The notes beneath the pieces were generated by a model. The model had not been told where the DNA came from, ran no database searches, and saw only the letters and a list, made by a program, of their open reading frames with translations. From a virus (Duplodnaviria; Heunggongvirae; Uroviricota; Caudoviricetes): DNA of 48,488 nt. The position numbers and the translations under genes were made by a program. Location: IMG/VR virus record IMGVR_UViG_2597490154_000001, one strand, 5' to 3'. This document shows positions 145-40,340 of the stretch, in pieces; position 1 is the first letter of the stretch, and every line of letters starts with the position of its first letter.

Positions 145-2937
145 ATGGCCAGCAATAAGAACTTTAAGCTGGCTTTTGAAATTGGCGGCAAAGTTGCCGC
201 CTCTCTCCCCAAAAGTTTTACTACAGCTAATCAGGCTGTTGCTAAATTAAATGCCGAGCTTGCTGGATTAACGAAAGAACATGGGGAAATTCAAAAGCTA
301 CAATCTGTAAAAGTAAAGGTTGGACAGACTGCCCTCGAATATCATAAAGCTGCCGCTCGCGTTGAAGAGTTACAGAAGCAAATAAAAAACACGGCCAATC
401 CAACCAGAGCGATGCTTCGTGACTTTGAGAAGGCAAAAACACATTCATCGAATTTACGAGCATCACTACGTTCTCAGCGTGAAGAACTGGCCGCTTTAAA
501 GTCTGCCTATCAGGGAGCTGATACATCTGCCAGAGCTTTGGCCTCAAGAGAGAAAGAGCTTAAAGCCAGCATTGATCGTAATCGTGAGGCTCAGGCCCGT
601 AGCGTTGAGCAGGTTAACCGCTACAGAACGGCTTTGGCTTTAGCCAGAGCAAATGTTCAGCAAGTGAAAAAACAGCAGGAGGAACTTAACCGGGCATTAG
701 AAAAACAACGTATTGATAAAATTAACAGCTATAAAAATGCGTTGGCTGAAGCACGGAAAAATGTTCTTGCAGTAAAACGTGCTCAGGAGGAGTTAAACCG
801 CGCGTTGGAAAGGCAGCGTGAATTGAAGCGAGAGCATCTTGGTGAGGCAAAGAGTCAACTTGTAAGGTCAGGATTACAAACTGGTGCTGTAGCGGCTGGT
901 GCATTTGCTGCTGCTAACAATGCAGCAAATTTCAATCGTGAAAACAAAATGATTGGTCTTACGGCAGATATGAAGCCGGAAGAAGTTCAGGCGATGGGGC
1001 AGGCGATGCTTGTTACCGGAACGGCCACCAACCAGTTTGCATCTGATATTCAGGCCGCTCAGGGTTTTCTTGTCGCTGCTGGGCAGGATTATAAAGAGGC
1101 TCAGGCGAATCTACTAACTATTGGGCGAACAGCTACAGCTACTGGCTCTGATATCCTCGATGTCTCGAAAGCATCATTTACATTAAGTGACTCATTGAAG
1201 ATTGATCCATCTCAAATGAAGTCTGCAATGGGGATTCTGGTTCAGGCAGGGAAAGAGGGAAACTTTGAATTTAAAGATATGGCCAAAAATCTTCCTGTGC
1301 TTGGTGCTCAGTTCCAGGCATTAAAAATGGGAGGTAAAGAAGCCGCCGCGACGATGGGGGCAGCTTTGCAGATAGCTCGCAAAGGTGCTGCAACTTCGGA
1401 TGAGGCTGCTAATAATATGAACAACTTTTTGGCGAAAATACTTTCCCCTGAAACACTAAAAAAAGCAAAGAAAAATTTCGGTGTAGATTTATATAAAATT
1501 GTCACAACAGCGCAGAAAAAAGGGAAGAATCCATTCGAAGCTGCAATGCATTCTGTCATGAAAATGACTAAGAACGGAGATCAGAAGTTACTTGGTGAGC
1601 TATTTGGCGATATGCAGGTTCAGAACTTTGTTCGTCCGATGATTCAAAACTGGAAGGAATACCAGAGAATCAAAGCAACATCTCTTGGAGCTGGAAGTGC
1701 TGTTATTGACCGCGATTTTGCCAACATAACGAAAGATAATGCGGAGCGATTGAAACAATTACGTATTCAGGCTAGCAATGCATCATTAAGTTTTGGTCAG
1801 GCCTTGCAACCTGCTTTAAATGCCGCGCTTAGTGTTTTGGTTCCGCTGATTACAAAAATCAGTGAATTTGTAGCTAACAACCCCAATTTTGTTTCTCAGA
1901 TTGTGATGGCGGCAGGTGCGTTTCTAACCATGAAAAGTGTGGTTATAGCGTGTAGGGTAGCTATGCTGGCTTTATCTGTAGCGACAAAGCTAACCCCTTT
2001 CGGGTGGATTCAGATGGCCATATCAGCCATTGTGGCGTTAGGTATATTGTTGTATCAGAATTGGGATAAAATAAAAGAATGTGCATCAAAAGTTTGGCCT
2101 GCTATTAAGGATTACACTGTTAAGTCTTTTGAGACTATAAAAAACTTTATCTTAAACTTTGATCTCAATGGATGGATTATATCCATGTTTGGTAAAGCAT
2201 GGGATTATCTTTCCAATATAAACTGGAGTTCGGCAGGAGTAAAGATTTACAGTACATTAATTAGTGCTTTTAAATGGATGTCTCCGCTTCCGTTATTAAT
2301 TAAAGCGTTTAAATATGTAAAAAATTATCTTTCTGGTGTTAACTGGAGCGAAACAGGAAAGAAAATCATAGATACACTGGTATCTGTTTTTATGCGTTTT
2401 TCACCAGTTGGACTCTTTATAAGAGCATTCCAATCTGTAACGGCTTATTTATCTGGAATAAACTGGAGTGAGTCAGGTGCAAAAATAATTGAGACGTTAA
2501 TCACTGGGATAAAATCAAAAGCAAATGCTTTAATTAATGAAGTGAAAGGCGTTTTTTCTTCTGTACGTGAGTATTTACCGTTCTCTGACGCGAAAAAAGG
2601 TCCATTCTCACAGCTAACAAAGTCAGGTGGTGCAATAATGACTACTCTGGCATCAGGTGTTAGCAGGAATAACAGCTTACAGAATGCAATAGCAACCAAG
2701 TTCGGGCAATCAAATTTATCACCTCACGGGATATCTGCCGCCGGGACTTCTGGACCTCGCCAGAACGTTAACGCTGTGACTGGTGGAATAACCTATTCAC
2801 CTGTAATCAATCTTCCGGCTGGTTCACCAAAGGAAACTGAGGCGGCAGCTAAAAGAGCATTAGATGCGGGATATTCTGATTTTGAGAAGAAATTGAGTGC
2901 TCATATGTTCCAACAACGGAGATTAAGTTTTGGATGA
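145..2937 (+). CDS. tail tape measure protein
   Basis: 930-aa ORF with coiled-coil-rich N-terminal half, hydrophobic segments and internal ~40-aa repeats; lies between tail chaperone and gpX/gpD-like genes. Confidence 0.85.
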   Translation: MASNKNFKLAFEIGGKVAASLPKSFTTANQAVAKLNAELAGLTKEHGEIQKLQSVKVKVGQTALEYHKAAARVEELQKQIKNTANPTRAMLRDFEKAKTHSSNLRASLRSQREELAALKSAYQGADTSARALASREKELKASIDRNREAQARSVEQVNRYRTALALARANVQQVKKQQEELNRALEKQRIDKINSYKNALAEARKNVLAVKRAQEELNRALERQRELKREHLGEAKSQLVRSGLQTGAVAAGAFAAANNAANFNRENKMIGLTADMKPEEVQAMGQAMLVTGTATNQFASDIQAAQGFLVAAGQDYKEAQANLLTIGRTATATGSDILDVSKASFTLSDSLKIDPSQMKSAMGILVQAGKEGNFEFKDMAKNLPVLGAQFQALKMGGKEAAATMGAALQIARKGAATSDEAANNMNNFLAKILSPETLKKAKKNFGVDLYKIVTTAQKKGKNPFEAAMHSVMKMTKNGDQKLLGELFGDMQVQNFVRPMIQNWKEYQRIKATSLGAGSAVIDRDFANITKDNAERLKQLRIQASNASLSFGQALQPALNAALSVLVPLITKISEFVANNPNFVSQIVMAAGAFLTMKSVVIACRVAMLALSVATKLTPFGWIQMAISAIVALGILLYQNWDKIKECASKVWPAIKDYTVKSFETIKNFILNFDLNGWIISMFGKAWDYLSNINWSSAGVKIYSTLISAFKWMSPLPLLIKAFKYVKNYLSGVNWSETGKKIIDTLVSVFMRFSPVGLFIRAFQSVTAYLSGINWSESGAKIIETLITGIKSKANALINEVKGVFSSVREYLPFSDAKKGPFSQLTKSGGAIMTTLASGVSRNNSLQNAIATKFGQSNLSPHGISAAGTSGPRQNVNAVTGGITYSPVINLPAGSPKETEAAAKRALDAGYSDFEKKLSAHMFQQRRLSFG

Positions 2938-3148
2938 TTATAGAACGGTTCAAGGGGACTCATGGGATAGTATCGCGTTAAAGTTGTATGGTAATGAGTA
3001 CCTGTCTTATCTTCTTATTGATGCTAATACTGAGCACCGCTTTACGGTGCTTTTTTCTGCGGGAATTATTCTTAAAGTTCCTGATGCTCCGGTTATGCCA
3101 ATATCAGTAAATAATTTGCCTCCGTGGAGACGCAATAGTGTTACGTAA
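2930..3148 (+). CDS. tail protein X-like (LysM-like small tail protein)
   Basis: 72-aa ORF (TTG start) resembling P2 gpX by recollection; sits between tape measure and gpD-like gene. Confidence 0.5.
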   Translation: MDDYRTVQGDSWDSIALKLYGNEYLSYLLIDANTEHRFTVLFSAGIILKVPDAPVMPISVNNLPPWRRNSVT

Positions 3149-4139
3149 AACGCTTTTTGATGTTGTATATCAGAATGTAAATATTACCGCTCATATGTCA
3201 CCTGATGTTTTGTCAATGTCTTATACAGATAATGAAGATGGTCAGGTCGATGATATTTCCATTATATTAAAAAATGATGATGGGAAATGGTCTGGAGACT
3301 GGACACCTAAAAAGGGTGATTTTATTGATTTGAGCTTTAAGCCTATAAATCAAATCGTCCTTGAGTGTGGGAAATTCCAGGTGGATGGCATAACTTGCTC
3401 TGGACCACCTTCTGTTGTTGAGGTGACTGCTGTTTCTGTTCCTGTTTCATCAGGCATTAGACGTGATTTAAAAAGTAATGCATGGGAAAAAACAACTCTT
3501 AAAGATATAGCGACTTCTATAGCTAAATTAGCTAACCTTGAACTGTTGTTTCTTATTGATGGTGATAGTAATCCATATTATGCGCGTGAAGATCAAATGG
3601 AGGAAAGCGATTTAAAATTTCTCCATCGACTTTGCCAGGATGAAGGGGTGTCGTTAAAGGTCACTGATAGCCAATTAATAATATTTGCTCAAGAGATGTT
3701 TGAGCAAAAAGATCCTATCGCTACGCTTACGTTAGGTATTGATGAGATAATCAGATATAGCTTTAGCACACAATCTACAGATTTGTATAAAAGTTGCACG
3801 TGCAAATATCGCGTACCTAAAAAAAGAAAGTCGCTTTCGTATACTTGGGTAGATCCATCCGTAGAAGAAGGGGCGAATCTTAAGATAAGAAAACTGGTAG
3901 CTAATTTAGATGAAGCAAAACGTAAGGCAAAGGCTGCTTTGCGGCTTAAAAATAGATATCAAAATACCGGATCTTTAGTTTTGGTTGGAGACACCAGATT
4001 GGTAGCTGGTGTAACTATAAATCTGGACGGATTTGGTTCATTTTCTGGAAAATATCTTATATCGAAAGCTGTGCATTCAATTGGGGCTAGTGGTTATACC
4101 ACCTCGATTGATGTCCGAAGAGTAATTAATGGGTATTAA
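3138..4139 (+). CDS. tail protein D / late control D-like (baseplate hub)
   Basis: 333-aa ORF, GTG start overlapping upstream gene; position and size typical of P2 gpD / Mu gp44 family. Confidence 0.7.
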   Translation: MLRKTLFDVVYQNVNITAHMSPDVLSMSYTDNEDGQVDDISIILKNDDGKWSGDWTPKKGDFIDLSFKPINQIVLECGKFQVDGITCSGPPSVVEVTAVSVPVSSGIRRDLKSNAWEKTTLKDIATSIAKLANLELLFLIDGDSNPYYAREDQMEESDLKFLHRLCQDEGVSLKVTDSQLIIFAQEMFEQKDPIATLTLGIDEIIRYSFSTQSTDLYKSCTCKYRVPKKRKSLSYTWVDPSVEEGANLKIRKLVANLDEAKRKAKAALRLKNRYQNTGSLVLVGDTRLVAGVTINLDGFGSFSGKYLISKAVHSIGASGYTTSIDVRRVINGY

Positions 4140-7268: not shown

Positions 7269-9677
7269 GTGAGTAAATTATTATTTACGATGACTGACGC
7301 CGGGCGTCAGGAGTTGGTTAATGCCAACAAAACAGGAACAAATAAAGTTGAGATTGTTTCTGTTGGTTTAGGTGGTAGATATTATGTCACGTCAACCTCA
7401 CAAACAAATATAACAAACGAAATAAAACGACTTACCACAATAGGTGGCAAAGTTGTTTCCCCTGATACAATTCATGTAACGGCGAAGGATGATAGTAAAG
7501 ATGAGTATGTTGTCCATACAATAGGATTGTATACAAATAAGGGAACGTTGTTTGCTGTATACTCGCAAGAACAAGCAATAATAAATAAAGCATCATCTAC
7601 TATTGCTTTAATATCAAGTGACATAGCAATCAAGACTCTTGATACTAAAAATATTATATTTGGTGATGTTGAGTTTATTAATCCTCCCGCGACCGAAACT
7701 GTTGTTGGGGTTGCAAGATTTGCTAATGAACAAGAAATTGATGCAGGTACAGATGATTCCCTTGCTGTTTCAGCAAAGCGGCTTAAGCAAGCCATTGTGA
7801 AACATGAGCAATCACGTAATCATCCTGATGCAACTTTAACCTCAAAAGGCTTTGTTCAACTTAGCAGCGCCACCAATAGCACGTCTGAAACGCTTGCTGC
7901 GACGCCTAAGGCTGTTAAGGCAGCATATGACCTGGCTAACGCTAAATACACCGCACAGGACGCGACCACTGCGCGGAAAGGGATAGTTCAGCTCAGTAGC
8001 GCCACCAACAGCACGTCTGAAACGCTTGCGGCAACGCCAAAGGCTGTTAAGGCGGCATATGACCTGGCTAATGGCAAATACACCGCACAGGACGCTACCA
8101 CTGCGCGGAAAGGAATAGTTCAGCTCAGTAGCGCCACCAACAGCACGTCTGAAACGCTTGCGGCAACGCCAAAGGCTGTTAAGGCGGCATATGACCTGGC
8201 TAATGGCAAATACACCGCACAGGACGCTACCACTGCGCGGAAAGGGATAGTTCAGCTCAGTAGCGCCACCAACAGCACATCTGAAACGCTGGCTGCGACG
8301 CCAAAAGCTGTTAAGGCGGTAATGGATGAAACGAACAAGAAAGCGCCCTTAAACAGTCCTGCGCTGACCGGAACGCCAACAACGCCAACTGCGCCAAAAG
8401 GGACTAATAATACTCAGATCGCAAGCACGGCTTATGTGATGGCCGCGATTGCCGCACTTGTAGACTCGTCGCCTGACGCACTGAATACGTTGAACGAGTT
8501 AGCGGCGGCGCTGGGAAACGACCCGAATTTTGCGACCACCATGACTAAAGCGCTTGCGGGTAAGCAACCGAAAGATGCCACTCTGACGGCGCTGGCCGGG
8601 CTTGCTACTGCGGCAGACAAGTTTCCGTATTTTACGGGGAATGATGTCGCCAGCCTGGCAACCCTGACAAAAGTCGGGCGGGATATTCTTGCGAAATCGA
8701 CCGTTGCCGCTGTTATCGAATACCTCGGTTTGCAGGAAACGGTAAATCAGGCTTCTGGCGCATTACAGAAAAACCAGAACGGCGCAGATATTCCAGGAAA
8801 AGATACCTTCACAAAAAATATTGGTGCATGTCGCGCTTTTCACGGTGCTATTAGTACAGGGGCAGGGAACTGGACAACGGCACAATTGATTGAATGGCTG
8901 GATTCTCAAGGGGCATTCAATCACCCATACTGGATGTGCAAATGTTCATGGTCATACGGCAATAATAAAATTATTACCGATACTGGCTGTGGAACTATTC
9001 ATCTTGCAGGTTGCGTTATTGAGGTTATGGGTAATAAAGGTGCCATGACCATCCGTGTAACAACACCAAGCACTTCCAGCGGTGGCGGAATCACTAACGC
9101 TCAATTCACTTATATTAATCATGGTGATGCTTACGCTCCTGGCTGGCGACGAGACTACAACACGAAAAACCTGCAACCTGCATTTGCTTTAGGGCAGACA
9201 GGAAACAGGGTTGCAAATGATAAAGCTGTTGGCTGGAACTGGAATAGCGGTGTTTATGATGCAGACCTAAAAGGCGCATCAACATTAATCCTCCACTTTA
9301 ATATGAATGCGGGGAGTTGCCCTGCTGTACAGTTCCGCGTGAATTACAGAAATGGCGGTATCTTTTATCGTTCAGCGCGTGATGGTTATGGCTTTGAAGC
9401 TAACTGGTCAGAGTTTTACACCACAACACGCAAACCCTCTGCGGGAGATGTTGGTGCATATACGCAGGCAGAATGTAACTCAAGGTTTATTACAGGTATT
9501 CGCCTTGGCGGTCTGTCATCTGTTCAGACATGGAATGGTCCCGGCTGGTCTGACAGGTCAGGTTATGTCGTTACGGGTTCAGTTAACGGAAACCGTGATG
9601 AATTAATTGATACAACTCAGGCAAGGCCAATTCAGTATTGCATTAATGGAACGTGGTATAACGCGGGGAGTATTTAA
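7269..9677 (+). CDS. tail fibre protein (constant N-terminal part fused to currently expressed variable C-terminal part Sv)
   Basis: 802-aa ORF, GTG start with SD; tandem ~44-aa repeats ([19 protein letters not shown] motif); C-terminal third lies inside the invertible segment. Confidence 0.85.
7848..8330. repeat. tandem direct repeats, period 132 bp, about 3.7 copies, inside tail fibre gene
   Basis: Units start at 7848, 7980, 8112, 8244; near-identical DNA and encoded 44-aa units. Confidence 0.9.
8713..8738. other. gix/hix-like recombination crossover site (left), inside tail fibre gene
   Basis: TTATCGAATACC-TC-GGTTTGCAGGAA; reverse complement closely matches the right site and the Mu gix half-site TTCCTGTAAACC as I recall it. 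Confidence 0.7.
8723..8794. repeat. left arm of ~72-bp imperfect inverted repeat bounding the invertible segment
   Basis: Reverse complement of 11717-11788 with 2-3 mismatches; encodes peptide [16 protein letters not shown](N/K)QNGADIP in both fibre variants. Confidence 0.9.
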
Positions 9678-12417: not shown

Positions 12418-12546
12418 CTGGAGTTAGGCCAGTAGTATGATGCTCGCAAAACGAGATCCAATTTAGATCCTTTTACTGGTGGATTATCGTTCGATCAGTG
12501 AGAGACTTCGTGCATGACCGAAAGTGTTGTGGTAGAGTTCTCTTAA

Positions 12547-12563: not shown

Positions 12564-12605
12564 ATGATTGTGGGTGTCTGGTTGGAAACTGACCAGATAT
12601 GGAAA

Positions 12606-12716
12606 CAAAAAGCCCGCAGATAAATCTGCGGGCTTCTTGCGACATCCACGGAAAACCAACAACAACAATCCATGGGCGCCTCGACAACTCCCATTATACG
12701 TTGGTTTTCCGTGGAC
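12606..12716 (-). ncRNA. candidate CopA-like antisense RNA of the IncFII-type replicon
   Basis: Large stem-loop (CCACGGAAAACCAAC ... GTTGGTTTTCCGTGG, 12647-12715) plus a hairpin at 12610-12634 that on the - strand is followed by a T-run; lies in the repA leader. Confidence 0.45.
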
Positions 12717-12730
12717 GCAAGAGCGAACAT

Positions 12731-13579
12731 ATGGATAGACCAATGCCGTCTCTACGTTCCGCTTACGTTTGTAATTTGTCGCCGGAGTTCCAGCCTCCAA
12801 AGCACCATACGCACAAGCTGCCGCTAGTGTTATCTGATGCTTTACAGCGCATTAATGGTCGTGATCTTACGTGTGAGGTTGCGTTCTACGTTAATCAGCC
12901 GTCAGAGCGGAAGCGCCGGATAAACGAGCATCGTCGTCGGGCGATTAATGCTGTGATTGCTGCGATTTTGCACCATGTAAACATCATTTCTAAGCGGGTT
13001 CTGGCCAGTGCTGAGGCGTTGGCTGATTTTTGCGGCCTGTCTACCGTATCCGAAGCTGGGAACAAGTCTATAACACGCTGTACAAGGGCGTTGTCGCAAC
13101 TGAAAGCGTTAGGTTTTATTGATTATGAACGTCGCTGGGATCGGGTGAATAAACAGTATTGGCCAGCGAAAATAGAGATTCGTGATCAACTGCTGGAAAC
13201 CGTTGGTATTACTGAACAAGCATGGAGACGTGCGGTTAGCCAGAAACTTAATTACTTCAATGCGAAGAATAGCGAACGGCTTAAAAAAGCGATAACGGAG
13301 GCTGATTATAAGCGTATTGTTATGCAGGAGCAGATGGAGAATGTATGGCGTCAGAGGAAGACAGCCAGAGAGATAAAGGCAAAACAGAAAGCAGCGGAGA
13401 GAGCTGCGCGTCTTGTTCAGGAAAAGGGAGAGGCCGAACTTCGTCATCAAATCACTAGAGAGGTTAGCCAGGAATTTGCTGATGGCATGTATCCTGGTGC
13501 TGACCTTGCATATTTACGATCCCTCGTTGAGCAGCGTTATAACAGGTTAAGAAAGACCTGGAAATCACTCCAACATTAA
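12731..13579 (+). CDS. repA: plasmid replication initiator RepA1 (IncFII RepA family)
   Basis: Clear similarity to R100/R1 RepA1 as I recall it (SITRxTRAL...LG(F/L)I.Y block, RRRAI motif); start set at internal ATG 12731 because 12599-12730 covers leader RNA structures. Confidence 0.85.
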   Translation: MDRPMPSLRSAYVCNLSPEFQPPKHHTHKLPLVLSDALQRINGRDLTCEVAFYVNQPSERKRRINEHRRRAINAVIAAILHHVNIISKRVLASAEALADFCGLSTVSEAGNKSITRCTRALSQLKALGFIDYERRWDRVNKQYWPAKIEIRDQLLETVGITEQAWRRAVSQKLNYFNAKNSERLKKAITEADYKRIVMQEQMENVWRQRKTAREIKAKQKAAERAARLVQEKGEAELRHQITREVSQEFADGMYPGADLAYLRSLVEQRYNRLRKTWKSLQH

Positions 13580-14797: not shown

Positions 14798-15041
14798 GGC
14801 TTTCGCGTCGAAAATGAGGCGAAACTGAAAACGAGATTTCATTAACAAATAAGCAACATAAAAAACGGTGGAAAACGCCCAGGAAAACATGATCTTTTGA
14901 GCGGATTTTTTAGATCCGACAATGAACGGTGATCCGGTGGTGCCGATAACGTCCATTATGTTAAATGGCCCCGTTTTTCTTGAAATTATAACTCACAGGT
15001 TATATAGTTAGTGATATAAACTACAGGTTATAGGATTGAGC

Positions 15042-15730: not shown

Positions 15731-15851
15731 TGCTCATGGAATTATATAATTATAGATTTATATAAAAAGTGCTTTACAGGTGGGACAATATTTCCTAGTG
15801 TTATACCCGAAACCGAGCGATACCCGCCCTGGTTAAACCGGAGATAACCCG
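15731..15851 (+). promoter_or_regulatory. copy 1 of a triplicated promoter/leader cassette (AT-rich motif, TTTACA -35, conserved ~50-nt leader, SD)
   Basis: Near-identical to 25433-25544 and 32064-32174; ends at the ATG of the downstream gene. Confidence 0.6.
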
Positions 15852-16232
15852 ATGAGCATGATTAAAATCCGCAAAAACGCTTTCCTTAAAATTCAAACTA
15901 TCCTGGCTGGTTCTGTTGGCGTGATTTGCCGTTCTTCTTCAAGCCGCATCGATGACGGCTACGATGATGAGTATCGTGTGTCCTCGTGCGATGAGGCTTT
16001 AACCTGGCTGAAGGAGAATCAGGAACGTGCCCAGGTATATCTGGAAACAGAGAACGGCAATCAGATGCTGCGTATTAGCGGTCGTTATGGATTTGAAACT
16101 ACATTCATGGCCTATTTTAATCAGGCTTACTTTGACAAGGAGCTGGCCTGGTACACTGATCGCATGAGCAAAAGCGAGCCAGCCCCGATTACACCGCCGA
16201 ACAATAAATCATTTTTATTCCTCGTTAAGTAA
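15852..16232 (+). CDS. hypothetical protein driven by cassette copy 1
   Basis: 126-aa ORF with SD GGAG; no recognisable family. Confidence 0.5.
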   Translation: MSMIKIRKNAFLKIQTILAGSVGVICRSSSSRIDDGYDDEYRVSSCDEALTWLKENQERAQVYLETENGNQMLRISGRYGFETTFMAYFNQAYFDKELAWYTDRMSKSEPAPITPPNNKSFLFLVK

Positions 16233-16295: not shown

Positions 16296-16568
16296 ATGAC
16301 GGGTTATGAATTGAAATTATGGCGTCGTGGGATGAACTGGACGCAGGAGCGAGCCGCCGAAGAATTTGGGATATCGTTGGCTACATATAAGCGATATGAG
16401 AAGGGGGAGCCGCCGAGGGTCATTGAGATGGCCATTCGCGTTCTGTCATTTGACGATATGGTTAAGGATCTTTCACGCCTTGATAAAGACGCGATTCTGT
16501 TAAGGCTGCAAACCCTTGTATGGGAAAAGGTTAAAGTGTCGTCAGAATTGGAACAAGGGATCAAATGA
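16296..16568 (+). CDS. small HTH (XRE-like) DNA-binding protein
   Basis: Strong SD GAGGAGG before ATG 16296; HTH-like WTQERAAEEFGISLATYKRYE; ORF track start 16263 is TTG. Confidence 0.55.
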   Translation: MTGYELKLWRRGMNWTQERAAEEFGISLATYKRYEKGEPPRVIEMAIRVLSFDDMVKDLSRLDKDAILLRLQTLVWEKVKVSSELEQGIK

Positions 16569-16615
16569 TCCTTTACGGATCGTTTTCTGGTGGTGTAATG
16601 TAAGCGCCAGAAAGA

Positions 16616-20874: not shown

Positions 20875-20888
20875 GTGTATCCTCTCTT

Positions 20889-20921
20889 ATATAAATCTAT
20901 AAAACTATAATTATATATTAC
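20889..20921. repeat. AT-rich motif site (TATAAATCTATAA / ATAATTATATA family) between the two par genes
   Basis: Member of a dispersed motif family with at least 8 sites in the window. Confidence 0.6.
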
Positions 20922-25375: not shown

Positions 25376-25432
25376 AAGTGTCATTTTGAGCTGTTTTGAT
25401 GGTGTGTAGACATCGGGAACATCGAAAATCTA

Positions 25433-25544
25433 TAAATATATAATTATAGATTTATATAAAAAGTGCTTTACAGGTGGGAAAAAATTTCCTAAGGTTATAC
25501 CCGAAACCGAGCGATACCCGCCCTGGTTAAACCGGAGAAATCTG
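25433..25544 (+). promoter_or_regulatory. copy 2 of the triplicated promoter/leader cassette (candidate late promoter)
   Basis: Identical over ~112 bp to 32064-32174; lies directly after the Q-like gene. Confidence 0.6.
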
Positions 25545-26612
25545 ATGAATAAACAAGTAATTATTTCTGACTGGATCAACAACCCTAACAGCCTGTTAAG
25601 CACTGATACTGGCTACCTATTACGCCATGTTAATGGTCGTATGGTCAAAAGCGATGAGCACGAAACCTTTTTCTTTGTTGAAGACGATGGGCGTATCTAT
25701 GAGGATGGTTACTCTTATGAAGCCCAAACTGGTTGTATCCCTGCGGAGCTGGTGGACGTAACAGAAGATCTGCGTAAAGCATGGCTTGAACAGCAGCAGC
25801 GCGGAGATGATTACGTAAACACCTATCAGGAACGCCAGAACGCGCGTCTTGCCCGATATATTGCTCGTGCAGAAAAAGCCAGAAAAGAAGGTGCGGTAGC
25901 GCATAAGCGAGCGCATGACCTGTTGGATGTGATCCCGTTAGGCCAGCCGATTTTAGTTGACCATTATAGCGCGAAAGGCCATCGCCGCCGTTTGTCTAAA
26001 GCTGATGCGTTATTCAGAAAAGCGTTTGTTGAATGCGAAAGTAAAGCATCACACTACGAGAGCAAAGCCGCAGGTGTTGGTCGTAATGGAATTTCGTCTG
26101 ATGATCCTGATGCGCTATTTAAGTTGCTTCGTAAGCTGCAAGGCTGCATGAAGTCACACGTCAAAATGAAGGCCGCAAATAAGGCCATTCGCAAATACAA
26201 AAAAGACCAATTACAGCAGCTTTCTGCATTAATCGATCTCAGGTTTACAGAAAGCGAAGCCAAAGAGTTACTGGCCGGAGATTTCTGTGGGCGCATCGGA
26301 TTCCCTTCATACGCACTGAGCAACAATAACGCCGAGATCAAACGACTACAGAGCCGTATTAAGGAGCTTGAATCGGTCAAGTCTGTAACAGGAGCACAGC
26401 GCGAAGAATACGACGACTTTTCTATGAAGATAGATCCAGAGGATAACCGCATCCTGTTTTATTTCCCTGGCAAACCAGAGGCAAACATTCGTTCGCTGCT
26501 TAAATCACGCGCCTTTAAGTGGAGTCCAACCCGTAATGCATGGGTTCGCAAGATTACTCCAAATGCCCTGGCTGATGCCCGATATCTGAAAGAATCGCTA
26601 TTGAAAGCCTGA
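25545..26612 (+). CDS. hypothetical protein (355 aa, coiled-coil rich)
   Basis: Driven by cassette copy 2; no confident family assignment. Confidence 0.5.
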   Translation: MNKQVIISDWINNPNSLLSTDTGYLLRHVNGRMVKSDEHETFFFVEDDGRIYEDGYSYEAQTGCIPAELVDVTEDLRKAWLEQQQRGDDYVNTYQERQNARLARYIARAEKARKEGAVAHKRAHDLLDVIPLGQPILVDHYSAKGHRRRLSKADALFRKAFVECESKASHYESKAAGVGRNGISSDDPDALFKLLRKLQGCMKSHVKMKAANKAIRKYKKDQLQQLSALIDLRFTESEAKELLAGDFCGRIGFPSYALSNNNAEIKRLQSRIKELESVKSVTGAQREEYDDFSMKIDPEDNRILFYFPGKPEANIRSLLKSRAFKWSPTRNAWVRKITPNALADARYLKESLLKA

Positions 26613-30922: not shown

Positions 30923-30953
30923 TATATATTTCTATAATTATATAAATATATAG
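30920..30953. repeat. AT-rich motif site upstream of the tRNA
   Basis: AATATATATTTCTATAATTATATAAATATATAG. Confidence 0.5.
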
Positions 30954-31090
30954 TTACAACATTCTATGCGCTTTTCTCATTAGCGCACGCATCAACCATG
31001 TTTGTCTGATATGCCGCCGCGCCCAAAAATCCTGAATTTATTGGCTGGGATTTTCGTGCGCGGCGCCACACCAGACAAACAAATCAAATA

Positions 31091-31166
31091 TGGCCCCTTA
31101 GCTCAGTGGTTAGAGCAGGCGACTCATAATCGCACGGTCATCGGTTCAAGTCCGGTAGGGGCCACC
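31091..31166 (+). tRNA. tRNA with CAU anticodon, most like tRNA-Ile2 (lysidine) rather than initiator tRNA-Met
   Basis: Folded by hand: 7-bp acceptor stem GGCCCCT/AGGGGCC, D-stem GCTC/GAGC, anticodon loop CTCATAA, T-loop GGTTCAAGTCC, encoded CCA; G1-C72 pair excludes initiator. Confidence 0.9.
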
Positions 31167-31475
31167 AATTCACTCTCACACATAAAGATAAGCGCGGTGG
31201 AGTTACTTCTTCGTGCTCATCTTTATGTGTGCCTGGTGCACATTTCGGGAAGCCGTTGGTTAGTGAGTACAGGCAGGGCCTGTTATCCGCAAAGGGGTAA
31301 AAGCTGGAGCGGCACGGAACTGTAGCCGTGTTACCAAAACAGCGTTGTCGGGCGATATCCGGCACACAACAGGCAAGGGCATTAATCAGTCTGGTTAGTG
31401 CCCTTTTCGTTGTGTCTGCTGTAGAGCTGGCCAGCGTTATGACTGCCGGAGATAAGCGCCGGAGGCACAACTAAC

Positions 31476-32063
31476 ATGGAGGCAATTGCATTGTTTAATC
31501 TGATTTATGCAGATCCCCCCTGGGAATACAAAGATAAGTGTAAGGATGGGAATCGTGGAGCTGGTTTTAAGTATCCAACGATGAAAGCTGAGGATATTGC
31601 TCGTATTCCTGTCTGGCAGCTTGCTAATCCTGAATCGTGTTTGTTGGCCATGTGGTGGGTTCCGACTCAGCCAGAAGAAGCGTTGCTGGTGGTGAAAGCA
31701 TGGGGATTCAGGCTTATGACCATGAAGGGCTTCACATGGAACAAATGTGGTAGCCGACAACCAGATAAGCTGGTGATGGGGATGGGGCATATGACTCGTG
31801 CAAACAGTGAAGATTGCTTGTTTGCGGTAAAAGGCAAATTGCCGACCCGCCTTGATGCGGGGATCATTCAGTCGTTTACATCGCCTCGTCTGGAGCATTC
31901 TCGGAAGCCTGATGTGGTTCGTGACAAGCTGGTAAGGCTGTTAGGTGATGTTCCTCGTATTGAGCTGTTTGCTCGCGGTGATTTACCTGATGGTTGGCAT
32001 GGCTGGGGCAACCAGTGCAATGGAGGTATCCAGTTGCATGATGCTCTCTGGCAAGTGGCATAG
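31476..32063 (+). CDS. MT-A70 family N6-adenine DNA methyltransferase (orphan)
   Basis: 195-aa ORF with catalytic DPPW motif (IYADPPWEY) near the N-terminus. Confidence 0.8.
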   Translation: MEAIALFNLIYADPPWEYKDKCKDGNRGAGFKYPTMKAEDIARIPVWQLANPESCLLAMWWVPTQPEEALLVVKAWGFRLMTMKGFTWNKCGSRQPDKLVMGMGHMTRANSEDCLFAVKGKLPTRLDAGIIQSFTSPRLEHSRKPDVVRDKLVRLLGDVPRIELFARGDLPDGWHGWGNQCNGGIQLHDALWQVA

Positions 32064-32174
32064 AATTATATAATTATAGATTTATATAAAAAGTGCTTTA
32101 CAGGTGGGAAAAAATTTCCTAAGGTTATACCCGAAACCGAGCGATACCCGCCCTGGTTAAACCGGAGAAATCTG
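32064..32174 (+). promoter_or_regulatory. copy 3 of the triplicated promoter/leader cassette
   Basis: Identical to copy 2 over ~112 bp. Confidence 0.6.
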
Positions 32175-32444
32175 ATGAAAGTACAAGACCGTGAAGTAGT
32201 AAAAAACCTCCTGCAATACCTGACCTCAAAAAACCTGACGGGCAGCGTTGAGTTCCGTGAAGCGTTAAAACATTTCAACGTCACTACGGTTTATCGTTGG
32301 GAAAACAAACATTCTGAAAGACCGTATGTGGTGGATGTTTTTGCGCCTGATATTGAGTGCGGTTTTGAGCGTCATTCGTTCAAGGAGAAACATTCTGCTG
32401 ATTTTTTTTGTGAGGTTGTATGTGCGGCAGGAGATGATGAGTGA
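32175..32444 (+). CDS. hypothetical small protein driven by cassette copy 3
   Basis: 89-aa ORF with SD GGAG. Confidence 0.45.
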   Translation: MKVQDREVVKNLLQYLTSKNLTGSVEFREALKHFNVTTVYRWENKHSERPYVVDVFAPDIECGFERHSFKEKHSADFFCEVVCAAGDDE

Positions 32445-34046: not shown

Positions 34047-34670
34047 ATGACAAAACATCTTAATGTGGTTTCTTTACCACTTTCTGTGTTGATTGGTTAT
34101 GAAAAGAACGCTCGCACACACTCCGTGGAGCAGGTAGATCAGATTGTTGCCAGCATACAGGAGTACGGATGGACTAATCCGATCCTGATAGACGAGAACA
34201 ATGTTGTAATTGCTGGTCATGGTCGAATTGCTGCGGCCACTCAGTTGGGGATGGATGATGTTCCCTGCATTGTTCTGGAAGGGCTAACGGAGAATCAGAA
34301 GAAGGCATATCGTCTGGCCGACAACCGTATTCCGCTGAATGCTGGTTGGGATGAAGAGTTGTTAAGCGCGGAGCTTGCAGATCTTGCGGCCGATGATTTT
34401 GCTCTGGACTCAATTGGTTTTACTCAGCGCGAACTGGATAACTTATTGAGTGCGGCGGTCTACGATGACACAGAGGGTATGGATATCCCATTTGAGAAGG
34501 ATGAGGCCAAATCAGGCGTAAAAGTTCAGTACCTGTCATTTGGAGGTCATAAAATCCCGGCAACGGATGAGGAAGCGGATCGTTTTGACTGCGCGGTGTC
34601 TCGTTATGTTGATGATAATGGCAGCTATATCGGATTTGTATCCGCATTGCTGGCTGGGGAGGTGTGCTGA
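34047..34670 (+). CDS. ParB-like nuclease (ParB N-terminal) domain protein
   Basis: 207-aa ORF with AGHGR motif; paralogue of 37337-37927 (~60% identity in the N-terminal 100 aa). Confidence 0.7.
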   Translation: MTKHLNVVSLPLSVLIGYEKNARTHSVEQVDQIVASIQEYGWTNPILIDENNVVIAGHGRIAAATQLGMDDVPCIVLEGLTENQKKAYRLADNRIPLNAGWDEELLSAELADLAADDFALDSIGFTQRELDNLLSAAVYDDTEGMDIPFEKDEAKSGVKVQYLSFGGHKIPATDEEADRFDCAVSRYVDDNGSYIGFVSALLAGEVC

Positions 34671-36043
34671 TGCTTCACCTCAATTACGACATAACGCACC
34701 TACGCGGCGCGGAATATAACCCGCGTTTTATCGGTGAGGATGATCTTGCGAGGCTGGCGGAAAGCGTCAGGGAGCTGGGGCTTGTGAAGCCATTGATAGT
34801 GCGCGGCGATTTGCTGGTGGCGGGACACCAAAGGACGAAGGCGCTACGTAAATTGGGAATAACGCGTGCTGCGGTGTATGTGTTGCCCTGTGAAACGACG
34901 GTATACGACGAAGTACGGTTTAACCAACTGCATAACGGAACGGATTTTGATAGCGGAGATGAGCGTTGCAGGGTGTCAGGTCTGGAAGATAAGCATGGTT
35001 TTGTTCAGGTATCGGCAAGCCAGATCTCAGGCAATATGCGCGCGAAAATGGCATATGTTCGAAAGAACATAGCGGAACTGGTTATCAAGTATGGTCCGTG
35101 GGGTGGTTGTGTTGCGACTCAGTCTGGTGAGGTTATTCACTGTGCTCAGTATGCATTAGCAGCGAAGATGACGCGCACACCGCTAACGGTGTTTGTGATC
35201 CCTGATGTTGAGAAGGAAAAATACCAAAGTTATCTGAATAAAACTTATGGTGTATTTGAGTATTCTCATCTGGAGAAAACAACATACATCCAGACGTATG
35301 CGCAGCTTATGCGGTTGCGTAATGGTGGCAGCCTGAAATCAAACCTGTATGAGTCGTTGATCCTCCCGATCATTGCCAAGACGCCAAGAGGAATTGATTT
35401 TGGTTCGGGGCAGGGAGACTACGCGCGAATGCTCAGGGCAAAGGGATATAACCTGCATGATCTCGAGCTTTTCCGCCGTAAGGGCGCTGGAAACACTCTG
35501 GATAGGGCCGCAACAAACCGGATGATTGATACGCTGGTGGACGACTTAAAAACGCGAGGGCGTTACGACTACGTGATTTGCGATAGCGTTTTGAACTCGG
35601 TCGATAGTGTCGAGGCTGAATGGTCCGTTCTGACGGTTCTAAAAGGCCTGTGTAAAGCTGGTGGGTCAATATTCTTTTCTGGTCGTAGCCGTGGAGAGCT
35701 GGAAACAGTCCTGAAGCAAACACAAGCGGCGAGTTCCAAAAGCCGGCTTTATTTTATTGATCATAACGGTTTTACCGCGTTGTACCGGAAGGGGCACTGG
35801 TTTTACCAGAAGTTTCACTCTGATGATGAAGTGAAGCAGTTGTGTCGTGTACATGGTTTCAGGATTAAGCGGTCAATATTCAACTGTAAGAGCTGGTATT
35901 TGCACGTCATTAACGATGATTCCCTTAGTTGGGCGAGTCTGGAGAAAGCTGTTCGTTTTGAGTTTGAGTTGCCGTTGCCTGGTGGTTCAACAATCGGACG
36001 ATCTGATGATGTGCTGGCGGCTTTCCGGCCGTTGATTAAGTAG
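34664..36043 (+). CDS. fusion protein: N-terminal ParB-like domain plus C-terminal class I SAM-dependent methyltransferase-like domain
   Basis: 459-aa ORF; AGHQR box; C-terminal GIDFGSGQGD, acidic residue after beta-2, YDYVICDSVL; no DPPY/NPPY or PCQ/ENV DNA-MTase motifs. Confidence 0.6.
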   Translation: MLMLHLNYDITHLRGAEYNPRFIGEDDLARLAESVRELGLVKPLIVRGDLLVAGHQRTKALRKLGITRAAVYVLPCETTVYDEVRFNQLHNGTDFDSGDERCRVSGLEDKHGFVQVSASQISGNMRAKMAYVRKNIAELVIKYGPWGGCVATQSGEVIHCAQYALAAKMTRTPLTVFVIPDVEKEKYQSYLNKTYGVFEYSHLEKTTYIQTYAQLMRLRNGGSLKSNLYESLILPIIAKTPRGIDFGSGQGDYARMLRAKGYNLHDLELFRRKGAGNTLDRAATNRMIDTLVDDLKTRGRYDYVICDSVLNSVDSVEAEWSVLTVLKGLCKAGGSIFFSGRSRGELETVLKQTQAASSKSRLYFIDHNGFTALYRKGHWFYQKFHSDDEVKQLCRVHGFRIKRSIFNCKSWYLHVINDDSLSWASLEKAVRFEFELPLPGGSTIGRSDDVLAAFRPLIK

Positions 36044-36059: not shown

Positions 36060-36779
36060 GTGGCTGACAGAATTGAGATAAAGATGGATTTTTCTTCTCA
36101 GGATATTCAACGACAACTCCAGCGCCTTGAAGAACGCGAATTGCCGTTCGCAATGGCGCTTGCGGCAACCAGAACGGCAAAGGCTTCTCAGGCTGCGATT
36201 AAGAATGAAATTAATCGGGTATTTGACAGGCCCACGCCGTGGATTCAGAACTCTACTTACGTTTTGGCCGCAAAGAAGAGTGATCCTACAGCCATTGTGT
36301 ATGCTCGTGAATGGGGAGGAACGCCAGCCCCTGTAACGTTGACTCCGCAAATCGAAGGTGGCCAACGACAGTACAAACGCTCAGAAGGGGCGCTAAGGGC
36401 TGGTGGATATTTGCCTAACGGCTGGCAGCTTGCTCCTGGTCCCGGCGCAAAGCTGGACAAATACGGGAATATTTCGCGGGGGCAATTACAGCAGGTCTTA
36501 TCTGGCCTAAGAGTTCAGCGAGATGCGCATCAAAATCGCCGTCAGGGCAAGCCTACGGAGTTTTTTGTTGTTCGACCTGGTACAAGTAACCCGCTTCAAC
36601 CAGGCGTCTGGCAGCGCGTTGGGCGGCGTCCTACGTTGATCCTTACGTTTATCCAGCAACCTAGCTATTCGCAGCGTCTTGATTGGCATGGCGTGGCGCT
36701 GCGTGCTGGTGAGGATGCGTTTGCTGATGAAGTCACAAAGGCTATTGATGACATCCTTTCTAAGACGTTCTCTCGTTAA
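36060..36779 (+). CDS. hypothetical protein (239 aa)
   Basis: Last gene of the ParB-like operon before the AT-rich packaging-proximal intergenic region. Confidence 0.45.
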   Translation: MADRIEIKMDFSSQDIQRQLQRLEERELPFAMALAATRTAKASQAAIKNEINRVFDRPTPWIQNSTYVLAAKKSDPTAIVYAREWGGTPAPVTLTPQIEGGQRQYKRSEGALRAGGYLPNGWQLAPGPGAKLDKYGNISRGQLQQVLSGLRVQRDAHQNRRQGKPTEFFVVRPGTSNPLQPGVWQRVGRRPTLILTFIQQPSYSQRLDWHGVALRAGEDAFADEVTKAIDDILSKTFSR

Positions 36780-37080
36780 TCATCGTGTGGTTGATGGTGT
36801 TGTTATGCAGGGTGTATTCACTGTGTTCTGTAGCGTCGCTCGCTGGCTGTCTGTGGGGGAGCACGAGCATCGTTTCATCGTCCGGCAGAATTGGGTCCTT
36901 CTGGCCAAAAGCGTTGGATGCGGGTCATTCGAACCCCGATGTTCGGCTAGCTAAACGTGAAAAAAGTTAGGTTAAAAGTTGCGGTAAAAGAAATTTACTC
37001 ATCTCATTGAAAAATATCGGGAAAACGTGATTTTTTGCTGTATTTGTGCTGGTAAAAAGAAAGTAGGAAATTTTCTTTTA

Positions 37081-37265
37081 GATCATCAAGATACGCGCAG
37101 ATCTTTAACCAATGTGATGTTGTTCTGATAAAAATCGTTATAAATCATGCAAATACATCCGATCTTTTAACCAAAACACCATCGCAAGATCCTTTTTACT
37201 TATAAAAACTTAATAAAATCAGATAATTATGCTGGTTTGTGTGATTTTTTATGAGTAAAAAGATC
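37081..37265. promoter_or_regulatory. GATC-rich intergenic region with direct repeats GATCTTT(T)AACCAA; candidate late promoter and/or packaging (cos/pac) recognition region
   Basis: Five GATC in 185 bp (37081, 37100, 37161, 37188, 37262); repeats at 37100-37114 and 37161-37177. Confidence 0.35.
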
Positions 37266-37336
37266 GTCATTTTTCTCTTTTAGTATCAATAAGTTAAACA
37301 GTTTTCTTTAACCTGTTGTGTTATGGCGGTTAAAAA

Positions 37337-37927
37337 ATGGCTCTAAAAATCGAATATTTACCAGTCGGTAAGCTGCTCAGATATGCCAAAAATTCACGGA
37401 CTCATTCAGATGAGCAAGTTGAACAGTTGGTGAACAGTATCCGTGAGTTCGGTTTCACTAATCCTGTGCTGATCGATGAAAAGAATGAACTGATTGCGGG
37501 GCATGGGCGGCTTGCAGCAGCCGAAATTCTGGAAATGGATAAAGTTCCGGCGATTCGGTTGAGTAACCTTTCTGAAAAACAGAAGAAGGCGTACAGGATT
37601 GCAGATAACAAGCTGGCCTTAAATGCTGGCTGGGATATGCAGCTTCTGGCCGAAGAAGTCAAAGAGTTAATGGATGATGATTTTGATATTGATCTGCTTG
37701 GGTTTAATGATGCAGAGCTTGACGAAATGTTAAGCGATGAACAGCCGCAGGAAGAAGACGATAATTCTTCCCCTGTTGTTCAAATTAAGTACCTGGCTAT
37801 TGATAAAGAACGTATTCCCGCGACGGATATGGAAATTGCATTGTTGCTGGATGTTTATCGTCAGTACCACGATGCGCATGAAACGCATGAGGGATTTGTT
37901 CAGTATCTTGCTAATGGTTGCAAGTAA
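37337..37927 (+). CDS. ParB-like nuclease domain protein, first gene of the packaging module
   Basis: 196-aa ORF with AGHGR motif; overlaps the small terminase start. Confidence 0.7.
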   Translation: MALKIEYLPVGKLLRYAKNSRTHSDEQVEQLVNSIREFGFTNPVLIDEKNELIAGHGRLAAAEILEMDKVPAIRLSNLSEKQKKAYRIADNKLALNAGWDMQLLAEEVKELMDDDFDIDLLGFNDAELDEMLSDEQPQEEDDNSSPVVQIKYLAIDKERIPATDMEIALLLDVYRQYHDAHETHEGFVQYLANGCK

Positions 37928-38483: not shown

Positions 38484-40340
38484 ATGGGCGAAACAGTATG
38501 GAGCACCGCTTTTTTCCGTGCGCTTCGCCCTAAATCACGGCTAACTGTTTCCGAATGGGCTGATAAGTATCGTCATGTAGCGCAGGGAACGTCTCCAGAG
38601 CCAGGGCCGTGGCGTACAAGCCGAGTGCCATATTTGCGTGAACCAATGGATGTTATTGGTGACGCTGATACAGAAACAGTAGTGATGCAATGTAGCTCGC
38701 AAATTGGTAAATCCGAATTACAGCTAAATGTTATGGGTTACTTTGCAGATCAGGAGCCATCTCCTCAGTTGATGATTTATCCAACGGTAGAGGCGGCTGA
38801 GGCTTTTTCAAAGGAGCGTATTGATCCGACGTTCAAATATTCCCCTGGTTTGAAACACAAGCTGCATGAAGGAAAAGAGGGGCGCGGTGCAGCCAAAAAG
38901 TCCAGCACGACTATACGTATGAAGCATTACGCTGGTGGATATATAGCACTTGTTGGTGCTAATTCCCCAGCAGGTCTTGCATCCAGGCCAATTCGAATAC
39001 TGTTAGCTGATGAGATTGATCGTTACGGTGTGACGCAGGAGGGCGACCCACTAAAACTAGGTATTCAGCGTACTACCAACTTTCATAATCGTAAGAAAGT
39101 TTTTGTTTCTACTCCTGTTTTGGAGGAAACGAGCAAAATCCACAAGTGGTTTAAGCTCTCCGATCAGCGTTACTACCATGTTCCTTGCCCATGTTGTGGC
39201 ACCATGCAGGTGATGAAATGGTCGCAAGTCAGATGGGATAAGAGCGATTCAGGTGAGGCGTTACCGGAAACGGCCAGATATGAGTGCTGTGAGTGCGGCG
39301 GGATTATGCGCGGATCTGGTAAACCAGACGTTGATTGGTTGGCAAAGGGGGTATGGATAGCTGAACATACTGGAGTTAAAGGTATTGTTGGTTTTCATAT
39401 TAACAGTCTTTACTCCCCGTGGGTTGCATTGTCAGAGCTGGTTGAAGAATTTACGGAAGCAACCAGAAACCGCGATAAAAATGGATTAATGGAGTTTATT
39501 AACCTTAAGCTGGGTGAGCCATGGAAAGAGGATGCTAAAGACGATATCGATCCTGAATACTTGTTGCAACGCAGAATAAGGTTTGAAGAGTTTTTACCAG
39601 ATGATGTTTTATTGTTAAGTGCTGGTGTTGACGTACAGGACACGTATTTAGTTTGTGAATTGGTCGGTTGGGGAAAAGGTAAGGAGTCATGGGGGATAGA
39701 ATATAAAATATTCCCAGGTGATCCCGCACAAGATGTTGTCTGGAAACAACTTGATGAATACTTACTCCGTAGCTGGTCATTCCGTGACGGTCGAAAATTA
39801 CAGATTTCTTCTGTTTGTATTGACTCTGGTGGGCATTTTACGACAGAGGTATATCGCTTCACTAAGCTGAGAGAATCAAGGCGAATATACTCTATCAGGG
39901 GGCGTGGTGGGGTAGGTTTACCATTTATAGGAAAGCCAAGTAATAATAACCGTGTGGGTGCTATGTTGTTTAATTTGGGGGTTGATGATGGTAAAGGGAC
40001 CATCATGGCAAGAATTAAACTACATGATCCTGGTCCTGGTTATATGCATTTCCCATTAGATTCTGACAGAGGATATGATACCGAATACTTTAAAGGATTA
40101 TTATCAGAGAAAAAAATATTTGAATATAAAAATGGGCAGACAAAAGAAAAGTGGGTGAAAGTCTACGAGCGTAACGAGCCTCTTGATTGCCGTAACTATG
40201 CAACTGCCGCGATGGAAATTCTGAACCCTAATTTTAACTGGCTTGCCGAACAGGAAATGCGAGGTAATGTGTATGTGCAGAACTCGTCAGGTATACGTAG
40301 AAGACGCCGTAGAGTTATAAGTAAAGGCGTAAACATATAG
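38484..40340 (+). CDS. terminase large subunit (lambda gpA-like)
   Basis: 618-aa ORF; size and position typical of gpA-family terminases. Confidence 0.85.
   Translation: MGETVWSTAFFRALRPKSRLTVSEWADKYRHVAQGTSPEPGPWRTSRVPYLREPMDVIGDADTETVVMQCSSQIGKSELQLNVMGYFADQEPSPQLMIYPTVEAAEAFSKERIDPTFKYSPGLKHKLHEGKEGRGAAKKSSTTIRMKHYAGGYIALVGANSPAGLASRPIRILLADEIDRYGVTQEGDPLKLGIQRTTNFHNRKKVFVSTPVLEETSKIHKWFKLSDQRYYHVPCPCCGTMQVMKWSQVRWDKSDSGEALPETARYECCECGGIMRGSGKPDVDWLAKGVWIAEHTGVKGIVGFHINSLYSPWVALSELVEEFTEATRNRDKNGLMEFINLKLGEPWKEDAKDDIDPEYLLQRRIRFEEFLPDDVLLLSAGVDVQDTYLVCELVGWGKGKESWGIEYKIFPGDPAQDVVWKQLDEYLLRSWSFRDGRKLQISSVCIDSGGHFTTEVYRFTKLRESRRIYSIRGRGGVGLPFIGKPSNNNRVGAMLFNLGVDDGKGTIMARIKLHDPGPGYMHFPLDSDRGYDTEYFKGLLSEKKIFEYKNGQTKEKWVKVYERNEPLDCRNYATAAMEILNPNFNWLAEQEMRGNVYVQNSSGIRRRRRRVISKGVNI

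Follow-up and report, generated by a model that had tools for sequence, protein, structure and literature searches.

The window considered here, meaning the whole 48,488-nucleotide stretch of DNA that was analysed, has a 557-bp intergenic gap at 36780-37336, with a GC content of 37% against 44% for the window, which precedes a run of packaging genes encoding a ParB N-terminal-domain (ParB_N) protein, a small terminase, a gpA-type large terminase and a lambda-family portal. An earlier reading from the sequence alone had drawn attention to this AT-rich region ahead of a ParB-like/terminase operon and to the GATC tetranucleotides within it, and the description is accurate. Five GATC sites, numbered 1 to 5 below, are found at 37081, 37100, 37161, 37188 and 37262, and the second and third of these begin the direct repeats GATCTTT(T)AACCAA, present as GATCTTTAACCAA (37100-37112) and GATCTTTTAACCAA (37161-37174). 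Two functions had been suggested for the cluster, namely methylation control of the kind known for the pac site of phage P1, or binding of the small terminase. The genes that bear on these proposals are as follows.

31476-32063, plus strand: gene for an MT-A70 methyltransferase (PF05063, E 3e-23).
37337-37927, plus strand: gene for a ParB/Srx N-terminal-domain protein (PF02195; phrog_620), the first gene of the packaging operon, 59% identical to its counterpart in Vibrio phage X29.
37927-38478, plus strand: gene for the small terminase, TerS (phrog_57, E 8e-42); the PGAP start is at 37927 and the open reading frame runs from 37918.
38484-40340, plus strand: gene for the large terminase, TerL, of the lambda gpA type (PF05876, E 7e-76; PF20454, E 5e-84).

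Three ParB N-terminal-domain genes lie within 4 kb (34047-34670, 34664-36043 and 37337-37927), and the one at 34664-36043 carries a fused SAM-dependent methyltransferase domain (Methyltransf_23), which makes it a second putative methyltransferase that was absent from the earlier account. In a distant relative, L073, the gpA-type large terminase gene at 1366-3885 has a LAGLIDADG_3 match between two GpA_ATPase matches, which suggests an intein or homing-endonuclease insertion.

The 561 bases around the GATC cluster are a 100% match to the circular 48,488-bp plasmid of E. coli ATCC 25922 / Seattle 1946. In the RefSeq annotation this plasmid combines a full myovirus gene set with RepA, ParA and a toxin-antitoxin pair, and the element is therefore a phage-plasmid. 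Relatives of the plasmid are present in 71 of 5,426 complete E. coli genomes, in 70 of the 71 on plasmids, and near-identical genomes have been deposited as free phages, these being the Yersinia phages vB_YpM_39, vB_YpM_41 and vB_YpM_44 and Escherichia phage vB_EcoM-613R2. A literature search found no paper describing the three Yersinia phages, and the paper on Yersinia phage HQ103 has no statement on termini. Membership of the pSLy3 phage-plasmid group was also considered, but the element appears to be unrelated to it, as that group is part of the SSU5 supergroup, the elements of which are much larger at about 100 kb. Further afield, a contig search with the ParB-like protein returned only 8 distant matches (41-57% identity, mostly from alphaproteobacterial MAGs), with unhelpful upstream regions; the contigs of the distant TerS homologues P0036 and P0045 stop at the upstream gene and do not include the DNA beyond it; and the upstream regions of distant IMG/VR loci (ParB-like protein below 60% identity) are heterogeneous, some having repeated words of their own, with no clear pattern.

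Several other features of the element can be recorded. A tRNA with a CAU anticodon at 31092-31167, which is assigned to Met by ARAGORN and in the Yersinia phage records and to Ile by PGAP, has about 88-91% identity to tRNAs of many unrelated phages. The tail fibre gene region contains three tandem copies of a 132-bp unit (7845-8319, 91-92% identical), and large inverted repeats (8719-8801/11710-11792 and 9761-10026/10423-10688) adjoin a recombinase gene, suggesting an invertible host-range segment.

The large terminase has the ATPase and endonuclease domains of the gpA family and the portal downstream is of the lambda family, and cohesive ends would therefore be predicted for the genome. Their position was drawn from the ends of five related virion-derived phage records, which gives a candidate cos site with the following parts.

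36891-36904, plus strand: conserved block TTGGGTCCTTCTGG, 19-32 bp left of the cohesive end, possibly a cosQ-like element.
36923-36934, plus strand: putative 12-nt cohesive end GGTCATTCGAAC, coinciding with the record ends of relatives and flanked by the predicted cosN nick sites.
36935-36953, plus strand: conserved right flank of cosN, CCCGA...TCGGCTAGCTA.

The records of Yersinia phages vB_YpM_41 and vB_YpM_39 begin at window position 36923 and that of vB_YpM_44 at 36935, 12 nt apart, and the record of Vibrio phage XM1 carries the homologous 12-mer GGTGCTCGCGAC at each end, the right-hand copy having a non-templated A after it. This is the product expected from the fill-in and A-tailing of a 12-nt 5' overhang, and it is from the fill-in duplication in XM1 that we infer the polarity of the overhang to be 5'. 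X29 has been reported to have defined ends with steep coverage drop-offs (PMC5690320). Its record ends with ...GAGCGGGTGCTCGCGA (last bases GGTGCTCGCGA) and starts with CCCCGGCTTTCGTCTAGCTA (first bases CCCCGG), and in Rostov 7 the cohesive-end sequence is contiguous. The Vibrio ends align base for base with TTGGGTCCT-N22-GCG/GGTCATTCGAAC/CCCGATGTTCGGCTAGCTA in the window, where the slashes bound the cohesive end.

The surrounding sequence is similarly conserved. The block TTGGGTCCTTCTGG is nearly invariant in 21 enterobacterial relatives and TTTGGGTCCT stands at an equal distance from the cohesive end in the Vibrio phages X29, XM1 and Rostov 7, and within the right flank of cosN the Vibrio phages share the string TCGnCTAGCT with relatives of the E. 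coli/Salmonella clade, and only its CTAG remains in the Yersinia-proxima-type clade. The 17-mer GGTCATTCGAACCCCGA occurs in 26 of 26 full-length enterobacterial relatives scanned (23 exactly, three with one substitution), always 412-414 bp from the ATG of the ParB-like gene, and in three further relatives, whose TerS is 52-57% identical, the core of the 17-mer is kept 409-415 bp from that ATG. As its counterparts in related virion genomes form the physical ends, the cohesive end can be placed by homology at 36923-36934 with high confidence.

To the right of cos, the 400-bp stretch that leads up to the ParB-like/TerS/TerL operon holds about nine copies of a motif, GGTWAAA(A)GA, together with two IHF-consensus sites. 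Three forward copies lie beside cosN and the copies that follow are mostly reversed, as set out below with offsets given from cos.

36970-36978, plus strand: motif copy a, GGTTAAAAG, invariant in the E. coli/Salmonella clade.
36983-36991, plus strand: motif copy b, GGTAAAAGA, at +61/62 in all enterobacterial clades.
37051-37060, plus strand: motif copy c, GGTAAAAAGA, position conserved at +129-131.
37100-37110, minus strand: motif copy d, GATCTTTAACC on the plus strand and GGTTAAAGATC on the minus strand, with GATC site 2; conserved at +181-183.
37161-37172, minus strand: motif copy e, GATCTTTTAACC on the plus strand and GGTTAAAAGATC on the minus strand, with GATC site 3; conserved at +242-245.
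37188-37200, minus strand: motif copy f, GATCCTTTTTACT on the plus strand and AGTAAAAAGGATC on the minus strand, with GATC site 4; left tip of a palindrome.
37217-37229, plus strand: IHF-consensus match AATCAGATAATTA, between copies f and g.
37254-37265, plus strand: motif copy g, AGTAAAAAGATC, with GATC site 5; right tip of the palindrome.
37284-37296, plus strand: second IHF-consensus match, TATCAATAAGTTA, from the consensus scan.
37305-37313, minus strand: motif copy h, TCTTTAACC on the plus strand, conserved at +378-386 in all enterobacterial clades.
37328-37336, plus strand: copy i of the motif, a doubtful one, GGTTAAAAA in the window and GGTGAAAAA in the Salmonella clade; it overlaps the ribosome-binding region of the gene for the ParB-like protein.

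The GATCTTT(T)AACC repeats described earlier are thus two copies of a larger family. The motif was defined post hoc, in A/T-rich DNA, and its GGTWAAA core is found seven times in the 418 bp of 36923-37340, compared with 28 times in the whole window and an expectation of 0.24 for the segment; dinucleotide shuffles gave a mean of 0.32 and reached seven in 0 of 2000 cases, and a genome-wide scan did so in 0 of 20000. There is no second GGTWAAA cluster elsewhere in the window. The IHF consensus WATCARNNNNTTR has eight matches in the 48.5 kb, two of which, as predicted sites, fall within the cos-to-operon gap. The one at 37217 is kept in all three E. coli/Salmonella subgroups, and the one at 37284 has matches or near-matches at the homologous position in relatives L023, L071, L069 and L072. 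Copies f and g, being inverted, make an imperfect palindrome of 78 bp (inverted repeat I1; hairpin fold z=-3.1), and its two arms show parallel changes when the E. coli and Salmonella clades are compared. An Rfam search of 36500-37600 found nothing.

Fundamental to the interpretation of the array is its behaviour in relatives, where the motif shifts in concert with its positions fixed, to GGTTAACAA and then to GGTTAACAC, and where the cos-to-ATG length stays at 409-415 bp across the enterobacterial relatives. For instance, in the Yersinia proxima-type relatives (TerS 52-57% identical) the copies read GGTTAACAA with their orientations unchanged, at unchanged cos offsets of 49, 62, 130, 182, 244, about 316 and about 384, and nearly every GTTAAC in the 5.5-kb loci of these three relatives (7 of 7, 8 of 9 and 10 of 10) falls within the cos-to-operon segment. 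In the Vibrio phages the interval from cos to the ParB-like gene contains GTTAACA(C/G) five times, with a G before four of the five in X29. At the position of copy a, for example, the sequence is GGTTAACAA in L069, L071 and L072 and GTTAACAC in the Vibrio phages. Concerted change at fixed positions therefore points to sites for a co-evolving DNA-binding protein. Some latitude in the array is evident from vB_YpM_44 (L003 / OR545055.1), which was isolated from a plaque as a phage despite a clean 90-bp deletion of 37061-37150 that takes with it GATC sites 1 and 2 and copy d; since this phage is viable, not every copy or spacing can be essential.

Taken together with the position of cos, we consider it probable that the region is the terminase-recognition, or cosB-like, part of a lambda-style cos site. 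Of the two earlier suggestions, that of small-terminase binding sites is thereby favoured, on the basis of some nine GGTWAAA(A)GA copies at conserved distances from cos that change in concert between clades, and that of P1-pac-like methylation control is set aside for the reasons given below. In such an arrangement a winged-helix domain of TerS would bind the GGTWAAA(A)GA copies, with IHF-induced bends separating copy f from its inverted partner g, and g from h. The resulting TerS/IHF complex would position the large terminase to nick cosN 147-330 bp leftward, after which packaging would run rightward. The GATC cluster would be mostly a by-product of the repeat, with no methylation requirement indicated.

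The lambda system provides the obvious comparison. Its cosB contains R3, R2 and R1 with the IHF site I1, and a dimeric TerS docks on R3 and R2 across the IHF-induced bend, R2 being inverted with respect to R3 and R1 (PMC4669245). The element resembles lambda in having a gpA-family large terminase and a putative 12-nt cohesive end, in a conserved element that precedes the predicted nicks by about 20-30 bp, in the rightward repeats in both orientations with IHF-consensus sites between them and the terminase genes after them, and in a small terminase predicted to have an N-terminal winged helix-turn-helix. By analogy, the GATC cluster sits where lambda has cosB. The cohesive-end sequences, in contrast, are unrelated, for that of lambda is GGGCGGCGACCT and GGTCATTCGAAC matches it at 3 of 12 positions, so that the element is not a lambda-like phage in the strict sense of having cohesive ends similar to those of lambda. 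The array also differs, with about 400 bp and some nine copies against 120 bp and three in lambda cosB, making it about three times longer, and a ParB-like gene is placed between the array and the small terminase gene. The arrangement is otherwise conventionally lambda-style, with an unusually long array for the proposed recognition.

Closer relatives of the packaging region are found in the Vibrio phages X29, phi 2, Rostov 7 and vB_VpaM_XM1, which share the ParB-like protein (59%), TerS (43%, the identity to the X29 protein) and TerL (62-65%) in an unchanged gene order, as well as a homologous cosN of the form TTTGGGTCCT-N21/22-GCG/GGTnnTCGnGAC/CCCG...TCGnCTAGCTA and GTTAA-core repeats to its right, with GGTTAA in most copies. 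Their array differs in extending over only about 100 bp, in having all five GTTAACA(C/G) copies in the same orientation and in having no GATC.

What, then, is the protein that reads the array? The N-terminus of TerS has a match to a Cox/excisionase-like profile (phrog_575), residues 5-52 of its AlphaFold model have a pLDDT of about 88, and the best fold matches of this domain are the winged-helix domains of Xis, BldC, RacA and MerR, with the weak E-values that are expected for a domain of just 50 residues. The model thus gives TerS an N-terminal winged helix-turn-helix. A PDB sequence search with TerS gave nothing meaningful, and NCBIfam has no model for either TerS or the MT-A70 protein. The start of the putative recognition helix of TerS differs by clade in step with the motif, reading SPAM, SRAA or SHVW, but this co-variation also tracks phylogeny and so fails to separate TerS from the ParB-like protein as the partner of the array. 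TerS is favoured by analogy with lambda, and the array most likely represents binding sites for the N-terminal winged-helix domain of the small terminase as the co-evolving protein.

Were the ParB-like protein the binder instead, the repeats would be a parS-like loading or autoregulatory array, or would serve the protein as an accessory packaging factor. In every relative, the Vibrio phages included, the array lies directly next to the ParB-like gene, and the protein has a ParB N-terminal domain, yet beyond ParB_N no helix-turn-helix or other DNA-binding domain was detected in it. Moreover, its C-terminal part does not follow the motif, being alike in the window and L069 clades despite their differing motifs and unrelated in the Vibrio phages even though their motif core matches that of the L069 clade. 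Partition also has a separate ParA locus on the plasmid, about 16 kb away, and a partition role is improbable in X29, for which integrase genes and no plasmid functions have been reported (PMC5690320). We regard this alternative as unlikely.

Recognition by the terminase also fits the region better than does a late promoter or operator, in which a transcription activator for the packaging and head operon would bind the repeats. This is the sole large non-coding gap in a co-directional block of late genes, it is AT-rich and it has IHF-like sites, all of which would suit such a function, but a scan of 36600-37500 revealed no sigma-70-like promoter and no terminator, and the motif clusters nowhere else in the window. 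As the upstream genes are co-directional, transcription could read through across cos as in lambda. Furthermore, the likely promoter/leader of the element is a different, 127-bp cassette that is absent from the gap. A role as a late promoter is accordingly rather improbable. The 127-bp element itself occurs three times on the plus strand with 83-96% identity (15737-15863, 25431-25557 and 32061-32187), each copy having an AT-rich palindromic part (ATAGAATTATATAATTATAGATTTATATAA) followed by a conserved leader whose end, GGAG-N7-ATG, falls at a gene start. Its appearance is that of a promoter/operator/leader cassette placed at the head of three transcription units, and related inverted AT-rich arms are present at 20887-20919 and 30923-30964.

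The reading in which methylation of the clustered GATC sites, by Dam or by the phage MT-A70 enzyme, controls packaging or late expression as at P1 pac depends on what significance is attached to the cluster. The local excess that had been noted is real, at about 7-fold over 1/256 and about 10-fold over window density or local composition, with 5 sites observed against 0.5 expected from either of the latter. When 36923-37340 is shuffled with its dinucleotides preserved, about 0.9 sites are obtained (P=0.0015). Across the genome, however, 5 of the 133 GATC sites fall within 185 bp somewhere in 16% of random placements (P=0.16), and GATC as a whole is under-represented in the window (133 against 167±14). 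The cluster is thus the densest in the window and genome-wide only borderline, not significant alone. The five sites share no common hexamer, their contexts being AGATCA, AGATCT, CGATCT, AGATCC and AGATCG.

Much of the excess can be attributed to the motif, for four of the five sites coincide with its variable 3' tail, GTWAAA(A)G(G)ATC (GGTTAAAGATC, GGTTAAAAGATC, AGTAAAAAGGATC and AGTAAAAAGATC), and so the cluster would be mostly a by-product of the repeat; GATC follows the GA of the motif in 4 of the 9 copies, which can also be counted in favour of methylation control, and the other copies end in GAAA. Conservation, which was scored across 21 distinct relatives, is uneven. Site 4 (37188) is kept in 21 of 21 and site 5 (37262) in 18 of 21, the exceptions at site 5 reading GATT and GAAC with GTAAAAAGA unaffected, and for these two sites the conservation exceeds what would be expected of a tail that was wholly incidental. 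In the E. coli/Salmonella clade they mark the tips of the 78-bp palindrome, with an IHF-like site between them, which can likewise be counted in favour of methylation control. The remaining three of the five are lineage-specific: site 2 occurs in two of three clades, the Salmonella clade being the one without it, site 1 occurs in the E. coli clade alone, and site 3 in the lineage of the window alone, the G of its GATC being A in every other relative. The segment has 1-5 GATC sites in relatives of the E. coli/Salmonella clade. As the GGTTAACAA-type relatives with the same architecture have 0, 1 and 0 in the whole gap, and the Vibrio relatives none in the cos-to-ATG segment, GATC clustering does not appear to be a conserved property of the cos architecture. 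Sites 1 and 2 are moreover missing from the viable phage vB_YpM_44.

E. coli and Yersinia are expected to have their own Dam, so the sites would be methylated without the phage enzyme. The phage-encoded MT-A70 gene at 31476-32063 is present as had been stated, and its product is 73% identical to the MT-A70 protein of Stx2a phages, but the GATC DNA specificity of this family is contested (PMC10810198). On the one hand, REBASE annotations for homologues give GATC, and M.EcoGV methylates GATC in vivo when overproduced; on the other, the closely related M.EcoPA8orf6770P was inactive on GATC DNA in vitro and has been reported to methylate 16S rRNA together with a partner subunit (PMC10810198).

The element and P1 share GATC sites clustered near a packaging site and a phage-plasmid lifestyle, and IHF, which P1 pac uses, may take part in both (PMC10028697). 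In P1, pac is bound when hemimethylated and cut when fully methylated. P1, though, has seven TGATCA/G hexamers flanking a cut that lies inside pacA and is made by the PacA/PacB pacase before headful packaging, whereas in the element the GATC contexts differ, the sites lie on one side of the predicted cut only, 147-340 bp to its right, the terminase is of the gpA type rather than a headful pacase, and the ends, judging by the 12-nt cohesive ends of relatives, are probably cohesive. The predicted cut site at 36923-36934 has no GATC within it, is at least 147 bp from any GATC and has its nearest leftward neighbour at 36638. Control of the P1 pac type thus fails on three of four defining features, and we judge this explanation very unlikely. 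A related proposal, to which we give an equally low probability, is that in the E. coli/Salmonella clade the terminase motif gained edge GATC sites (37188 and 37262, and copies d and e) whose methylation tunes the assembly of terminase and IHF at cos. If this were true, with methylation set by host Dam or by the element's own MT-A70, packaging would be coupled to replication state, and P1-like logic would have arisen independently on a lambda-type cos site.

A replication origin is the least tenable reading, for although iteron-like repeats, IHF sites, AT-rich DNA and GATC recall P1 oriR or oriC and other iteron-type origins, and the element does replicate as a plasmid, RepA (about 12599-13579) is about 23 kb away with its own nearby GATC triplet and AT-rich flank, and the array adjoins cos also in Vibrio relatives for which no plasmid maintenance is reported, X29 having integrase genes. 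An iteron search around repA found weak two-copy repeats only, and the GC-skew profile of the window was uninformative. The GATC triplet in question comprises three sites within 42 bp at 12455-12496, about 100 bp upstream of repA, and is a likelier place than the cos region for Dam-linked control of replication or repA expression. Other tight triplets occur at 16559-16581 (three in 23 bp), in the gap after a helix-turn-helix gene, and at 14891-14934 (three in 44 bp).

The preferred reading, that of a cosB-like terminase-recognition array, concerns a phage-plasmid family that is found in about 1.3% of the complete genomes of E. coli, that of the reference strain ATCC 25922 among them, and which infects Yersinia pestis as a free phage. 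For this family the cos site and its likely recognition array would together provide a map of packaging specificity, which may be useful for cosmid-like tools and for predicting the DNA that the element can transduce. More generally, a GATC cluster beside a packaging operon need not mean methylation control.
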